Part shown: one piece after another, positions 6,397-31,630 of the stretch
Numbering within the stretch: position 1 is the first letter of the stretch
Layout of the letters: each line of letters starts with the position of its first letter
Source: a virus
Taxonomy: Duplodnaviria; Heunggongvirae; Uroviricota; Caudoviricetes
Reading direction: 5' to 3' (one strand)
DNA length: 33,953 bases
Virus record (IMG/VR): IMGVR_UViG_2534682338_000010
Location: 1-33,953 of that record
Translations under genes and position numbers: made by a program
Notes under the pieces: generated by a model
What the model was told of the DNA's origin: nothing
Seen by the model: only the letters and a program-made list of their open reading frames with translations
Database searches by the model: none

Positions 6397-6675
6397 TTAT
6401 TTTTGTCTGAGTAAATCGATAACTTGGTCAAATTTAGCGTCCATCGCAACCACTTTCTTTTCTATACCGTGAAGGGTTTGTTCCATGCGATAAACTCTCT
6501 CGGCGATCTGGTCGTGGTTATTCTGCATTGTTTCAAACTTCTGATTAAACAATGCATCATTGGACTCTAATTTCGACAATCTATTTTCTGTGGCTAATTG
6601 ATTTCGGTGAAGTCTCCATAATCCACCACAAATTAAGGCGATAACACCGATACCGCCATATATAATTTCAGTCAT
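6397..6675 (-). CDS. membrane-anchored coiled-coil protein (i-spanin-like or holin-like)
   Basis: N-terminal TM segment GGIGVIALICGGLW followed by a heptad-like hydrophilic domain; sits in the lysis module. Confidence 0.5.
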   Translation of the reverse strand: MTEIIYGGIGVIALICGGLWRLHRNQLATENRLSKLESNDALFNQKFETMQNNHDQIAERVYRMEQTLHGIEKKVVAMDAKFDQVIDLLRQK

Positions 6676-6720
6676 TACGCCCCCGATATTTTTATATAGT
6701 TTAATGGCAAAATTATTTAG

Positions 6721-15449: not shown

Positions 15450-15956
15450 TTAAGAGATTTTCAAAGTCTGCTTAGTGCCAGTCTTCTTAATGTTGGTAAG
15501 GAAAGCAGCCGGAGGATTGCTTAACCAGTAGTAATGAAAACCACTTTGCATACTGTTATAAGGAACAGTGACAGCAGCACCACCCAAATTAACGGTTATA
15601 TTCCCCGCTCTACCATTCTGGAGATATACAGCCATAGTAGGAGTACCACCATTGAATTGACCAACGATAACGCCAATCAGACGCCCTACGCCCACGTTTT
15701 CGGGGTTCTCCATAGATCCTTTACCGCGCATGTCAGTTACTGGATAGTTTGAAGCAGTTACACCCCAGTTATTACCCAATGAAGTAGACCACGCAGCAGT
15801 AGCTACAACCGTATCCATACCACGACCACACATCGCACTCATGTTAGCTGGGCGACTAACCTTTAATGCGTTCATTGCTGCGCTCATCCATCGTTGACCA
15901 GTTACAGAAACAGCAGATGACCCGACCCAGCCAGGCTTATTAACGACATTCGCCAT
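15450..15956 (-). CDS. tail-associated structural protein (Gly/Asn-rich)
   Basis: 168-aa ORF; GGAG SD 8 nt upstream; follows the terminator after the putative tube gene. Confidence 0.5.
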   Translation of the reverse strand: MANVVNKPGWVGSSAVSVTGQRWMSAAMNALKVSRPANMSAMCGRGMDTVVATAAWSTSLGNNWGVTASNYPVTDMRGKGSMENPENVGVGRLIGVIVGQFNGGTPTMAVYLQNGRAGNITVNLGGAAVTVPYNSMQSGFHYYWLSNPPAAFLTNIKKTGTKQTLKIS

Positions 15957-15971
15957 TTTGATTACTCCAAT

Positions 15972-15999
15972 AAAAAAGCCCCACCATTAAGGCAGGGCT
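15972..15999 (-). terminator. intrinsic terminator (homologous to the one after the capsid gene)
   Basis: minus-strand hairpin GCCCUGCC-UUAA-GGUGGGGC with a G-U pair, followed by UUUUUU. Confidence 0.65.
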
Positions 16000-16004
16000 T
16001 ATAA

Positions 16005-16124
16005 TTAATCTTTAGCCTTGCGGCTTCGTTTAGCTGTGGCTTTCGCCGTAACTTCTTCTACTTCTGGAATCACCACCGCTTCATGTTCCGGCTGTGGTTC
16101 CGGTTCGGGAAGTTCTTCGAAAGT
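16005..16124 (-). other. in-frame post-TGA extension of the putative tail-tube gene (39 codons then TAA)
   Basis: frame 0 after TGA (16125-16127) is open: TFEELPEPEPQPEHEAVVIPEVEEVTAKATAKRSRKAKD; homologous to the capsid extension. Confidence 0.45.
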
Positions 16125-16601
16125 TCAAGCGGCAGTATTGAAGATTTGCTGTTTCAGCGGAGCACCATCAACGGCAAAGGTAAACTCTTTAGTTACCACT
16201 TCTTCATCGCCACCGTTCATAGCAACTTTAGAAATGAAGCCGTTGTACGCAATGCGAATACCAGTCTGTTTTCCGGCGTCAACATAATACTCTACTTTGA
16301 TCTGGCAGCGAGTGCCGTCTTCGGCAGCTTTTGCGAGCTTCTCGTGTACCGCATCACCTGGGATGTAGTTAACGGTCAGAGTCAGATCTTCAACGTTCAG
16401 TTTACCAACCAGCTTACGGTTATACTGAGAAGAATACGATTTGACTTCTACCGTCCCGCGAGACAGTGAATATTCAGGAAAACCAGCACACTCTTTAATT
16501 TCTTCGTATGCTTCATCAGCAAGATCGGTGTTAGTGGTATCAGCGTGATAGAACAGACTTACCAGACCACCAGTAAAAATATCTTTAAATTGTTGAGACA
16601 T
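16125..16601 (-). CDS. putative major tail tube protein
   Basis: 158 aa; size typical of siphovirus tube proteins; followed by a strong terminator; ends with TGA. Confidence 0.5.
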   Translation of the reverse strand: MSQQFKDIFTGGLVSLFYHADTTNTDLADEAYEEIKECAGFPEYSLSRGTVEVKSYSSQYNRKLVGKLNVEDLTLTVNYIPGDAVHEKLAKAAEDGTRCQIKVEYYVDAGKQTGIRIAYNGFISKVAMNGGDEEVVTKEFTFAVDGAPLKQQIFNTAA

Positions 16602-20271: not shown

Positions 20272-21105
20272 TTAATACTCACCGAAATCGATCCGGTCCG
20301 TCTTAGCCACTGCGCCAATTTCGCTAGGTGTCGGTTTCTCATTGGTGGAATATACCTTGATCCATTCAGAACGACCGTTTTCCTGAATATTTCGGACACG
20401 TAAACGCGGTGCGCCAGAAGTATTACAGGTTAATTGCCATGCGCCATGCTCATTAGCTTGAAGGTGAATTAACGATGTATCAGCACCATAAGGGTTAGTG
20501 CTAGCCGTTCCTTTGTAGGTTACGAAACGGTTTCCTGCTAATGCCTCGCTATCAATACCGCCCGTGAATGGATGTACACCTGCACCCAAACCAAAATCAC
20601 CCTGACGTAAGATCCGGCCTTCGGTAGCAATACCCCTTGCCAAAATCCCGCCATCTGGTTCAAGTTTAAATTCCAGTGTTACAGCTTTGTTATCACTACC
20701 ACGGGTTTTATGTGATGTGACGTAAGCATCGAATATACAAAAGTACCCTGTGTTAGCAGCACTATAGCCAGAGTTCACAACATAGAACATACGGAAGCGT
20801 AAAGGTGTTTTATCCTCTACCGCTTTCATCAACATTGCTTGATGTTCATCGTCAAGAACACGGTTTAACGTGAGTGTTGTCGGTTCCAGTCTACGATAAC
20901 CAGCAAGTTTCCCCGTAGCGTCCTGATCGTACTCTTCCAGAGTTTCAATCTCTGTGGATTCGGTTAGCGTAGGGAATGCTGCGATGTTCTCAATAGAACT
21001 AAAGCTAGGATCGAAAAAGTCGACCTGATTGTCTATCTGGTTAGAGATCGACACTTCAACATGCGACCCCGTGAAAATGTCTAAGTTATCTTGTGTAATA
21101 TTCAT
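20272..21105 (-). CDS. tail/neck structural protein (possible tube or fibre-anchoring protein)
   Basis: 277 aa; C-terminus shares the motif KPTPSEIGA with the 1178-aa fibre. Confidence 0.5.
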   Translation of the reverse strand: MNITQDNLDIFTGSHVEVSISNQIDNQVDFFDPSFSSIENIAAFPTLTESTEIETLEEYDQDATGKLAGYRRLEPTTLTLNRVLDDEHQAMLMKAVEDKTPLRFRMFYVVNSGYSAANTGYFCIFDAYVTSHKTRGSDNKAVTLEFKLEPDGGILARGIATEGRILRQGDFGLGAGVHPFTGGIDSEALAGNRFVTYKGTASTNPYGADTSLIHLQANEHGAWQLTCNTSGAPRLRVRNIQENGRSEWIKVYSTNEKPTPSEIGAVAKTDRIDFGEY

Positions 21106-21114
21106 TATTACCCC

Positions 21115-21537
21115 TTAAAAACGCGCTAGATAAGAAAATTTAAGGCTAAGTGTCCCAACGATACCACCATCACTAGAATCATCGTCATAATCGGTATTAG
21201 AAGCTACTGGAGTGATATCTGAAATTGAGAAGCCCAAATCTTTAAAACGTGGGTTATCCGGCTGAATCTGGATTATCTGGCAAATACCCTCATGAATTTT
21301 CGTTTCATGAATCTGAGAATATAACTGCATTTCGATAACGCATTCAGCTTGCATTGCATTACCGCCACGGACCCTAGTGTAAGTCTCATTCATTCCGGTG
21401 ATCCAACAAACCACGTCATCACTAAAGCCTTGCTGAGTTTGTTCTACGTTTAAAGCCAGACCTAAATCTTGTTCGATAATATCCTGCAAGGCGCGTTTGA
21501 TTTTCAGTCTAGGCATATTATTAACGGTAGCGAGCAT
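21115..21537 (-). CDS. head-tail joining / tail completion protein
   Basis: ATG at 21537 preceded by AGGGGG with 6-nt spacing; overlaps the upstream gene end by 17 nt. Confidence 0.45.
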   Translation of the reverse strand: MLATVNNMPRLKIKRALQDIIEQDLGLALNVEQTQQGFSDDVVCWITGMNETYTRVRGGNAMQAECVIEMQLYSQIHETKIHEGICQIIQIQPDNPRFKDLGFSISDITPVASNTDYDDDSSDGGIVGTLSLKFSYLARF

Positions 21538-21811: not shown

Positions 21812-21841
21812 AGTTACCCCCTTTATGGAGTATTTACATAC

Positions 21842-21868
21842 AAAAAAGCCCCACCGTTAGGCAGGGCT
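21842..21868 (-). terminator. intrinsic terminator after the capsid gene
   Basis: minus-strand hairpin AGCCCUGCC-UAAC-GGUGGGGCU followed by UUUUUUG, starting 2 nt after the tandem stops. Confidence 0.65.
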
Positions 21869-21870
21869 AA

Positions 21871-22002
21871 TTATTATTCTTTAGTTTTACGTTGTTTTTT
21901 AACTGTGGCTTTCGCCGTAACCGTCTGAGATTCTTCTTCCTGAGATGGAATCAGATTTTCTTCCCCCAAATCGGGGGAAGGTTCAGATGGTTCTACGTTA
22001 GT
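21871..22002 (-). other. in-frame post-TGA extension of the capsid gene (42 codons then TAA-TAA)
   Basis: frame 0 after TGA (22003-22005) is open: TNVEPSEPSPDLGEENLIPSQEEESQTVTAKATVKKQRKTKE. Confidence 0.45.
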
Positions 22003-24006
22003 TCATTCAGCGGAGATGTGAAGAACTTTCAGAGCTTCCGGCTGAACTACGGTGAAGTCCAGGTCTACCCAGATACGCGGAACGATAGCAGACTGTGCGC
22101 GGTAAGTGGTGTCGTCCATATCCAGTTCCAGACCACCCCATTCACCGATCATGATACCGGAGAAATCACCCAGAACGATGTGGTCTGCCGGAATAACGCC
22201 AGAAGTAACTACATCGTAACCAGCCAGTTTGCCGTTTTCGATGATATAACCGGAAACGCCGTTATCTTTCAGGGTAGATTCCAGTTCAGCAGCAGTTGCA
22301 CCGCTCATTGCAAACTTGATGGACTGTGCCGGAACGCCAGCGTCGGTCAGTGCTGCAATTTCTTTCAGGAAGTCTTTGTAGCTAAAAGCGGCTTTCTTAG
22401 TAACGCGACCACCGTCTACCAGTTGCTTAACCAGACCTTTCGGACCTCGAGTATTATCTTTGTCAGACAGAATCAGTTGTTCCAGTTTGATGCGAACAGC
22501 TTTGTTAATATGATCAGTGATCAGGGTAGCAATATTCGGAACAGTTTTCAGAGACTGACGGCTGATCGGGTTGCCACCAGCAAACGTCTTAGGAGCCATT
22601 TTCACGTTTGCAAATTCAGCTTTGCTTTCCGGTGCAGCACCGTTTTCATCAACGAAACCGAAAGCATCAACGCTGGAAGTAGTCATTTTCGGTACAGCAA
22701 TCGGAGCATTCAGACCAGACAGAACAGTCACACCCAGACGACCCAGAACAGACTGCGGAAGCAGCATTTCTACATAGGATTCGGTCAGCAGTTTTTCGTC
22801 GGTTACAGCAGTCAGAGTAGCTTTGGTGTTACCATCAGCAGCAGCACGCAGAGCAGCAGCCGGAACGAATACAGAGCCACCGCGAGCAGCACGACCACGC
22901 TGCATTGCAGCACCAGCAGCCATTGCAGAAAACTCGGCTTCGTTAGCACCCAGAGCTTCACCATCTACCAGGGAGCGAATTACGTTGTTCAGGTCAAAAG
23001 TTTTTTCCATTTTAGAGTCCTTAATTTGTTCGTTATTACGTTGAGCAGTAGCGATTTTATTTAGTGTCTTAGTGCGGAATGCTTCCGGCGTCATGTCTTT
23101 AATTGCTAATGCGCGTTTCAATTCTTCGTCATCAATATTTAGTTCGCGTGCAATTTCGCGAATTTCTAATTCATCTTCTTCGGAACGTTCAGCCACTTCC
23201 TCGGTTTTTTCTTCTTCATCCGGAGCGGCTTCACGTTCTTCTTTTACTTCTTCTGCTTCCCGAACAGTTGAACTATCATCATCAACACTTTCAGGATGTT
23301 CAGCGTCTTTTCCGTCTTCGAGATTTTCATCTTCTTTATTCTCTTCAACTTGGCGCTCTTGAGTTTCTTCAACTTCCGGTTCTTTATTTTCTTCTACCGG
23401 AGTTTCTTCAACCTGAGCGGATTCTTGTTCTTCTTTGATTTCTTCGATTTGTTCTTTAGTCATATCGCGTTTAGCCTCCAAATTAACTGTGATAGTATTT
23501 AGAGAGCGATTTAAACCGACAGAATCATCGGCAGGGACCGTCACAAATGAAATTTCAAAAGGCGCCCACTTAGTAACAATCAATTGCCCTTTGGTGTAGT
23601 CGATGTGATATTCTTTAATGTCATAACCGACAGAAATTTTTTCCATCGTACCTTCAATGACTTTATTGCGAATATCATTAGCCAAAGTGCCATGCTTAGA
23701 GAATTTAACCAGAGCACGACCTACGTTATCCGCATCGATTCGAGCGTTACAAACGACACCAATATGATTATCGAAATTATGATTGAACAGCAACGGAGCG
23801 TTATTATTCAGACGGGACAGATCAACCGCTTCCGGTGTATGTACCAGAATTTCATCTAATACCACCATTTCTTGATTTTGCTCATCCCAGAATTGGCGCT
23901 GATAAGGCTGTTCACTGGAGAAAGCAATTTCAAATTCGTATTGATCGTTATGCCCTTCGTTAATAACTCCACCGTAACCGTTAAGATCGCGGCGAAATTT
24001 AAGCAT
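22003..24006 (-). CDS. prohead protease / acidic scaffold (delta-like) / HK97-fold major capsid protein fusion
   Basis: 667 aa: N-terminal about 170 aa protease-like (ends EISFVTVPAD), about 150 aa extremely Glu-rich linker, C-terminal about 330 aa capsid-like. Confidence 0.75.
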   Translation of the reverse strand: MLKFRRDLNGYGGVINEGHNDQYEFEIAFSSEQPYQRQFWDEQNQEMVVLDEILVHTPEAVDLSRLNNNAPLLFNHNFDNHIGVVCNARIDADNVGRALVKFSKHGTLANDIRNKVIEGTMEKISVGYDIKEYHIDYTKGQLIVTKWAPFEISFVTVPADDSVGLNRSLNTITVNLEAKRDMTKEQIEEIKEEQESAQVEETPVEENKEPEVEETQERQVEENKEDENLEDGKDAEHPESVDDDSSTVREAEEVKEEREAAPDEEEKTEEVAERSEEDELEIREIARELNIDDEELKRALAIKDMTPEAFRTKTLNKIATAQRNNEQIKDSKMEKTFDLNNVIRSLVDGEALGANEAEFSAMAAGAAMQRGRAARGGSVFVPAAALRAAADGNTKATLTAVTDEKLLTESYVEMLLPQSVLGRLGVTVLSGLNAPIAVPKMTTSSVDAFGFVDENGAAPESKAEFANVKMAPKTFAGGNPISRQSLKTVPNIATLITDHINKAVRIKLEQLILSDKDNTRGPKGLVKQLVDGGRVTKKAAFSYKDFLKEIAALTDAGVPAQSIKFAMSGATAAELESTLKDNGVSGYIIENGKLAGYDVVTSGVIPADHIVLGDFSGIMIGEWGGLELDMDDTTYRAQSAIVPRIWVDLDFTVVQPEALKVLHISAE

Positions 24007-31388: not shown

Positions 31389-31630
31389 TTTTGCCCCTCA
31401 CTAAGTTAATGTTTTATAAAGAGTTTTTCTCACAAATCCTTTTCGGGGGCAAATTTCAGGGGCAAAAATTAGATTTTCAGGGGCAATTATTGGCATTTCA
31501 GGGGCAAAAATGAGGGGCAAAATCACTGTTTCCCAGAATTTCAGGGGCAAAAATAGTAGGTTTCAGGGGCAAAAATGGGATGTGGAATCTAGGGGATTTT
31601 GGTTCAGGGGCAAAATTCGGGGGCAATTTT
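31389..31630 (+). repeat. iteron-like array: 9 direct copies and 1 inverted copy of GGGGCAA(A/T)
   Basis: direct copies starting at 31445, 31459, 31480, 31501, 31514, 31544, 31566, 31607, 31619; inverted copy at 31389-31397; several have the extended form TTTCAGGGGCAAAAAT. Confidence 0.8.

Follow-up and report, generated by a model that had tools for sequence, protein, structure and literature searches.

Conserved in-frame extensions behind the UGA stop codons of a capsid and a tail-tube gene suggest low-level readthrough in a siphovirus-type prophage of Escherichia coli

To our knowledge, all known recoding at the 3' ends of capsid and tail genes in phages is frameshifting, and we know of almost no documented natural, selected stop-codon readthrough in bacteria and their DNA phages beyond Qbeta, a single-stranded RNA levivirus whose A1 extension is a folded domain of about 200 residues that is needed for infection. 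Here, we describe two late genes of a siphovirus-type Escherichia coli prophage, a fused protease-capsid gene and a gene for a 158-residue tail-tube protein, that both end in TGA followed by A and continue in frame for 42 and 39 codons, respectively. They lie on IMG/VR record IMGVR_UViG_2534682338_000010 (positions 1 to 33,953; this whole stretch of 33,953 nucleotides (nt) is called the window below). Sequence comparison across relatives suggests that the UGA codons are under selection for low-level readthrough, which would produce minor, tailed forms of the capsid and tube subunits; we assign this reading a probability of about 0.62. A leaky-stop extension on capsid and tube would be the first stop-codon readthrough in tailed-phage structural genes: no such case was found in a review of recoding (PMC5009743) or in the literature searched.

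According to Weiner and Weber (1973, as cited in PMC7026636), low-level reading of the Qbeta coat gene UGA by tRNA-Trp yields the A1 product, a minor component of the virion. The proposal made here shares with A1 the use of the host translation apparatus, the near-cognate Trp-tRNA at UGA and the small number of extended subunits per particle; unlike Qbeta, the window phage is a double-stranded DNA tailed prophage, the tail is short, two different proteins are concerned and expression is predicted only. Frameshift-extended capsid or tail proteins are listed for T3/T7, Lactobacillus A2 and Listeria A118, A500 and PSA (PMC5009743). The Listeria phages (proteins Cps and Tsh) and A2 are like the window phage in that both the capsid and the tail-tube gene have a recoding site at the 3' end that yields a minor longer form (PMC5009743), and the site in PSA tsh (CCC_UGA) is at or next to the stop codon, as in the window phage. 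However, the Listeria and A2 phages shift by +1 or -1 whereas the window extensions are in frame behind UGA; their extensions are folded immunoglobulin (Ig)-like domains while those of the window family are disordered tails of 28-45 residues; and only in the window family do both genes carry the same module, in phages of Gram-negative enteric hosts. T7 and T3 (10A/10B) also make a minor C-terminally extended capsid form by recoding near the end of the gene, and the T7 extension is not Ig-like (PMC5009743), but they use a -1 frameshift. The closest parallels for the tube are SPP1 gp17.1/gp17.1* and the C-terminal domain of lambda gpV: the tube has the same fold and the addition is placed at the same topological point, facing outwards (PMC8718954). 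This addition is thought to contact the cell surface weakly, with a dosage set by recoding at 3:1 in SPP1 (PMC8718954). In SPP1 it is an FN3 (fibronectin type III) domain added by +1 frameshifting and in lambda the domain is constitutive, while the window phage has a charged, disordered tail behind a putatively leaky stop.

The tube region has matches in 22, and the capsid end in 52, of 5,426 complete E. coli genomes. Loci from 15 of the matching genomes were compared with those of about 50 IMG/VR contigs and of metagenome contigs, and Salmonella, Edwardsiella and a second E. coli lineage were added through protein look-ups. The comparison rests on 60 distinct nucleotide alleles of the extensions (21 tube, 39 capsid). 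The elements of the two loci in the window are, all on the minus strand:

16128-16601, minus strand: tail-tube protein gene, 158 codons, with a predicted fold like the lambda gpV N-domain (PHROG 158, AlphaFold2 (AF2), Foldseek, gene order)
16125-16127, minus strand: putative leaky stop of the tube gene, TGA followed by A (TGA-ACT in 21/21 distinct tube alleles)
16008-16124, minus strand: tube extension, 39 in-frame codons, TFEELPEPEPQPEHEAVVIPEVEEVTAKATAKRSRKAKD (window sequence)
16053-16124, minus strand: spacer part of the tube extension, acidic and rich in proline, TFEELPEPEPQPEHEAVVIPEVEE, with a net charge of -9 (from composition; no secondary structure, predicted local distance difference test score (pLDDT) about 50)
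16008-16052, minus strand: basic tip that ends the tube extension, VTAKATAKRSRKAKD, with a net charge of +5; it begins with the 19-nt block (16034-16052) shared with the capsid locus (composition, block search)
16005-16007, minus strand: TAA that closes the tube extension, 4 nt ahead of the terminator stem (same place in all tube alleles)
15966-16000, minus strand: rho-independent terminator that follows the tube extension, AAGCCCTGCCTTAATGGTGGGGCTT and a run of T (10 pairs, of which 6 are G-C; homologous to that of the capsid locus)
22006-24006, minus strand: one fused gene of 667 codons for prohead protease (S78), acidic linker and HK97-type major capsid protein (Pfam, PHROG)
22003-22005, minus strand: putative leaky stop of the capsid gene, TGA followed by ACT (TGA-A in 39/39 distinct capsid alleles)
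21877-22002, minus strand: capsid extension, 42 codons, TNVEPSEPSPDLGEENLIPSQEEESQT (net charge -8) followed by VTAKATVKKQRKTKE (net charge +5); shared block at 21903-21921
21960-21980, minus strand: predicted stable RNA hairpin within the long capsid extension, CUUCCCCC-GAUUU-GGGGGAAG, which starts 22 nt past the TGA
21837-21876, minus strand: TAA TAA (21871-21876) and the rho-independent terminator that follows the capsid extension (9 pairs, of which 6 are G-C, and a T run)

The initial annotation of this DNA had described the tube gene as ending in TGA-ACT, followed by 39 in-frame codons and TAA, and these coordinates are correct on the minus strand; for the capsid gene the in-frame continuation it described is also present, with 42 sense codons rather than the 44 that it implied. 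The 19-nt block that it saw in both extensions (GTTACGGCGAAAGCCACAG) has exactly two copies in the window (16034-16052 and 21903-21921), with zero matches expected from shuffled sequences even if three mismatches are allowed. The block is part of an 80-nt direct repeat of 76% identity (15973-16052 and 21842-21921), which also comprises the terminators that had been called homologous. Their stems (15976-16000 and 21847-21868) are the two strongest terminator-like sites between 14 and 26 kb, and at both loci the extension open reading frame (ORF) ends 2-4 nt short of the stem. Between the tube and the capsid copy of the tip, all changes are synonymous or conservative (CGC/CGT, AAG/AAA, R/K, D/E). 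In a single genome an open frame of 39 codons is not significant (chance roughly 0.1-0.15), and its significance comes from the comparison across loci, in which the pattern exceeds chance by far. The records compared all annotate the extension as intergenic.

In all 60 alleles, Salmonella included, the first stop codon is TGA followed by A, and the frame behind it is open to the same end point. The codon after the TGA is ACT in 50 alleles and AAT in 10, the latter all in capsid genes (TGA-ACT 29, TGA-AAT 10), while the codon before it varies (tube: GGA, GCT, GGT, TCT; capsid: GAA, GAG, GAC, GAT). Extensions differ in length (36, 39, 40 or 41 codons in the tube gene, 28, 33, 42, 43, 44 or 45 in the capsid gene), and the at least eight indel events within them are all multiples of three: 6, 3 and 18 nt in the tube extension and 48, 27, 3, 3 and 3 nt in the capsid extension. 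By contrast, the terminator loop has indels of 1-2 nt across the loci. The sense frame 0 is the only frame that is open in all alleles of both genes; the +1 and -1 frames have stop codons in every allele. An in-frame stop would arise from about 4.4% of point changes, and the spanning trees, with about 160 substitutions in total, contain no such change. A homologue that keeps the block but has an interrupted frame behind the TGA, which the initial annotation had named as a result that would refute its reading, was looked for and is absent among the 60 alleles.

The TGA itself is tied to the extension. At these loci, the stop codon of other structural genes is overwhelmingly TAA, with TAAT as the most common form, and capsid or tube homologues with no in-frame extension also nearly all end in TAA, with one exception from Edwardsiella (TGA-T); these homologues are from distant IMG/VR relatives, phage DCP80, the second E. 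coli lineage (tube only) and Salmonella and Edwardsiella (tubes). Thus, the two genes for which the highest expression is expected have the weakest stop codon exactly where an extension follows.

The ratio of non-synonymous to synonymous polymorphism (pN/pS) in frame 0 is 0.37 for the tube and 0.64 for the capsid extension, while the other frames have values of 0.74-0.85; this indicates purifying selection on the residues, of the modest strength that is typical of disordered linkers. The start of the tube extension (TNEELPE...IP) and of the short capsid type (NNEELPE..IP) have residues in common that are encoded by different codons (CTT/TTG, CCC/CCG, CCA/CCG). The selection at protein level that the initial annotation had postulated is supported by these data and by the multiple-of-three indels; its contrast with a shared RNA element alone is, given the nucleotide constraint on the block described below, better put as selection on the protein and possibly also on the RNA.

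Several other explanations of the conserved frame were considered and rejected. No antisense frame is open in all tube alleles, which excludes an antisense ORF. Recoding to selenocysteine, which calls for a SECIS element directly behind the UGA, is rejected, as there is no Rfam match even at E <= 1 and the sequence past the UGA differs among alleles. Stop-codon reassignment is rejected too: the pattern is found in these two genes only, and the remaining ORFs are intact, a few of them with TGA as their stop. There is no suppressor tRNA in the window. The sole tRNA call by ARAGORN there is a 91-nt tRNA-Glu at 21260-21350 (plus strand), antisense inside a structural coding sequence, and is probably a false positive.

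All alleles encode the same design, a Glu/Pro-rich spacer (net charge -4 to -9) followed by a Lys/Arg/Ala tip (net charge +5 or +6). In the AF2 model of the extended tube protein, residues 159-198 have no secondary structure and pLDDT values of 36-53, and the extension peptide is predicted to be disordered. Pfam searches with the extension (28-45 residues) found no domain; one allele has a sub-threshold match to AT_hook (E = 0.09), and some tips resemble AT-hooks (KKVGRPPKAK, KRGRKPKE). In general, HK97-fold capsids have external C-termini, as in T7 10B display and in encapsulins. The tube fold ends at the point that is equivalent to the start of the outward-facing Ig-like domain of gpV, and in lambda this C-terminal domain begins after residue 156 and protrudes outwards (PMC8718954).

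The mechanism that we propose is as follows. Release factor 2 (RF2) would terminate most ribosomes at the UGA, while a small fraction, probably around a percent, would decode it with Trp-tRNA(Trp) and produce a C-terminally extended subunit; the predicted Trp-insertion junctions are ...LHISAE-W-TNVEPSEPSPDLGEENLIPSQEEESQTVTAK and ...IFNTAA-W-TFEELPEPEPQPEHEAVVIPEVEEVTAK. The rate of UGA readthrough is determined by the competition of Trp-tRNA with RF2 (PMC10570021), and a UGA with A at position +4 is especially misread by tRNA-Trp in E. coli according to Engelberg-Kulka (1981; cited in PMC5289835). Each head and each tail would then have a small number of extended subunits with flexible, cationic tips, and these would lie on the virion surface, since the tube fold ends where the outward domain of gpV starts and HK97 capsid C-termini are external. 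Their function is a matter of speculation: they might bind weakly, by electrostatic interaction, to anionic polymers (lipopolysaccharide, capsule, DNA, mucus), parallel to the role suggested for the Ig-like and FN3 extensions gained through frameshifting in other phages. Presumably, the stop codon is retained over a sense codon because full occupancy would be harmful or unnecessary.

The initial annotation had further suggested that the module is transferable, and the loci of relatives agree well with this idea. Capsid genes that are 57-59% identical to that of the window at nucleotide level jump to 83-86% identity exactly at the TGA and reach 87-95% further downstream; spacer types and tip types have been shuffled across the 19-nt block; and at one locus (L016) the tube extension is joined to a terminator that is otherwise used by extension-less tube genes. 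These patterns show that the module moves by recombination, with the stop codon, the 19-nt block and the terminator as candidate joints. In Salmonella and in the sister E. coli lineage the capsid extension is present and the tube extension is absent, and for this reason the tube copy is probably derived from the capsid copy. An exact 18-nt match to the block was found in an unrelated small phage ORF ending in ...PVVEPKVKAKATPKAAKKAKKEVKEDE (IMGVR_UViG_3300030419_002355); it may be due to chance or represent a further protein with a basic tail of this kind. Ten matches from a scan of GTDB for the block were judged to be chance, and a protein-pattern scan of GTDB genomes confirmed no relative.

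In the wider family, tails of a similar kind may be reached by other decoding routes. Among capsids that are 45-49% identical to that of the window, some have short constitutive tails (GTPAEAKAAKQ, GEAEAGETRKAK). Other distant capsids end in TAA or TGA but have, in the -1 frame, a K/A/R-rich ORF that extends as far as the terminator: such cases were found at the 3' end of the capsid gene in L212, L215, L208/L209, phage DCP80 (L001, about 6520-6700) and Edwardsiella (L059/L256). In each, a lysine slippery motif is placed 2-5 codons ahead of the stop codon (A_AAA_AAG in L212, A_AAA_AAA in L209, A_AAG in DCP80 and Edwardsiella), and the -1 peptides of L212 and L215 are conserved, differing by one whole codon. 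We regard these ORFs as candidate -1 frameshift versions of the same tail; with them, the distant relatives resemble T7 more than the window phage does. The Edwardsiella tube protein ends constitutively in ...VIPEAVAAKEK. The tails of these relatives speak for the extension as a real part of the protein. Together, the few genomes suggest an old origin of the tail, with a dose that different decoding routes determine.

A number of observations weigh against selected readthrough, some of them at the level of the RNA. Purifying selection on the residues is only moderate, and the peptide differs between nearly all nucleotide alleles. Across about 60 alleles, the 19-nt block is free of synonymous changes. 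A GGC-GAAA-GCC mini hairpin of the GNRA type persists in its rare variants (GGT..GCC twice, GGA..TCC once); in L012 this hairpin has a double compensatory change. The 8-bp hairpin that starts 22 nt past the UGA in the long capsid extension has an invariant stem and a variable loop in E. coli alleles, and its Salmonella version (CUCUCCCC...GGGGAGAG) differs by two compensatory pairs. In the short capsid type, another hairpin, of 11 bp, starts 11 nt past the UGA, and the tube extension has no strong one (z = -1.2): RNA folds revealed no readthrough-stimulating structure at the usual spacing that is common to all alleles. Downstream stimulatory structures are present in many, not all, known cases of readthrough. 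On the protein side, we infer translation of the extension from sequence, and no variant with a sense codon in place of the stop, which would show that a fusion is tolerated, was found in a collection of 5.8 billion proteins. In that collection, the capsid search returned four partial matches, none of which covers the extension. The lone full-length tube match (P0001, from locus L053; 198 residues with W at the position of the stop) was rejected as a gene-calling artefact over the TGA; the metagenome pipeline read TGA as Trp, and the artefact coincides with the predicted readthrough product. No cultured close relative was found either, the best phage record being DCP80 with 41-44% identity: a near-identity DNA search of phage records had no match, and the family is known only from prophages, uncultivated virus genomes (UViGs) and metagenome contigs.

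The constraint on the block would be explained if the 80-nt module (block, A-rich stretch, terminator) and the hairpins acted as an untranslated 3' element and the open frame were incidental, either as an mRNA-stabilising 3' end or as the source of an Hfq-type small RNA derived from the 3' untranslated region, with the block as seed. The identity of the block in both copies, its conserved mini hairpin, the position of the A-rich stretch and then a strong U-tailed terminator behind it and the compensatory pairs of the Salmonella capsid hairpin all fit this. Such an element leaves the multiple-of-three indels, the invariant TGA-A and the link between TGA or TAA and the presence of an extension unexplained, and equally the residues that are kept by different codons and the constitutive or -1-frame tails of relatives; an Rfam search of the region had no match and no complementary small-RNA target for the block exists within the window. 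We consider it improbable that RNA alone accounts for the loci; an RNA role could accompany translation rather than replace it. The block is constrained at nucleotide level beyond coding, and the constraint on block and hairpins may reflect mRNA stability, a small RNA, a patch of homology for recombination or a modulation of readthrough.

Readthrough might also matter for the act of translation and not for its product: ribosomes that pass the TGA would mask the 5' arm of the terminator, the rate of readthrough would set transcription into the downstream head-tail and tail genes and the peptide would be a by-product. It fits that the distance from the end of the extension ORF to the terminator stem is always 2-4 nt, that frame and leaky stop are strictly retained under weak selection on residues and that the terminators follow the two most abundant structural genes. 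Yet the design of acidic spacer and basic tip is kept in both paralogues, in all alleles and in Salmonella, similar tails are constitutive on capsid or tube proteins of relatives, and an occupancy at percent level could relieve termination only marginally; stop codons tight against terminators are ordinary compaction and are also found in extension-less relatives. We hold a purely regulatory role to be slightly more doubtful than a purely untranslated element. The extensions could finally be decaying remnants of an ancestral constitutive tail that was cut by a nonsense mutation and has left downstream sequence still undegraded, and the short constitutive tails of similar composition in distant relatives speak for this. 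It is very improbable, however: 60 alleles from E. coli and Salmonella have kept the frame through many substitutions and at least eight in-frame indels with no stop or frameshift, the TGA never drifts to TAA while other stop codons in the same loci vary, and the module was copied onto a second gene along with its TGA.

Selected low-level readthrough can be combined with the observations on the RNA and on distant relatives into a broader scheme, which we offer tentatively and consider to be clearly less probable than readthrough as such. The tail would be constitutive in some relatives, reached by -1 frameshifting at A_AAA_AAG-type motifs in others and reached by UGA readthrough in the E. coli-Salmonella branch, where leaky stop, tail and terminator would also have been copied onto the tube gene. 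This would be the first programmed readthrough in tailed-phage structural genes, with the last 80 nt doubling as coding sequence and as an RNA element (GNRA mini hairpin, or small-RNA seed and terminator). If readthrough is real, a charged, disordered tail that can move between structural proteins would be a new type of virion decoration, and annotation pipelines miss genuine isoforms of virion proteins. The conserved UGA-A pair in E. coli prophages would then also provide an easy system to study what determines readthrough rates in wild strains (RF2 variants, tRNA-Trp levels). For phage engineering, the extensions would suggest a natural low-copy display site on both head and tail.

The late genes of the window are on the minus strand, in the order large terminase, portal, fused S78 protease-capsid (22006-24006), head-tail genes, a tube-like protein of 277 residues, a T-even-type long tail fibre, the 158-residue tube protein (16128-16601), a gp38-like adhesin, two chaperone-sized genes and the tape measure gene. 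The fused capsid gene has the Pfam domains Peptidase_S78 and Phage_capsid and matches PHROG 617 'major head protein' (E = 5.9e-96). The tube protein matches PHROG 158 'major tail protein' (E = 1.7e-20). The core of its AF2 model has pLDDT values of 76-90, and the top Foldseek matches of this core in the PDB are the siphophage tail tubes of NF5, lambda (gpV), YDC107 and 80alpha (E about 1e-6); in relatives, the tube gene is immediately upstream of the chaperone-sized genes and the tape measure gene. By its modelled fold, the protein is a lambda-like tail tube with the gpV N-domain fold, in agreement with its initial description as a putative tail-tube protein. It is not the sole protein of this type: the 277-residue paralogue, encoded at 20272-21105 (minus strand) upstream of the fibre gene and conserved across the family, shares the fold. 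The paralogue is 29-31% identical to the 158-residue protein over the tube domain and has an extra C-terminal part; it may be a fibre-docking ring rather than the main tube. With this paralogue present, the label 'major tube' for the 158-residue protein is a putative one, drawn from fold and gene order.

The gp38-like adhesin gene (15450-15956, minus strand) is placed between the tube gene and the chaperone genes in the clade of the window. It is absent in L016 and in the L054 lineage (L054-L056 compared) and is upstream of the tube gene in Edwardsiella (L059), which indicates that the fibre/adhesin cassette was inserted at differing places around the tube gene. Several prophage copies (L014, L015, L016) have insertions of the insertion sequences IS2 or ISKpn26 in portal/capsid, head-tail or fibre genes; some members of the family are thus defective. 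Away from the late genes, positions 31442-31626 of the window contain six to seven copies of TTTCAGGGGCAAAAAT-like repeats with a spacing of about 21 nt, an iteron- or operator-like array that resembles a replication origin or a regulator-binding site.

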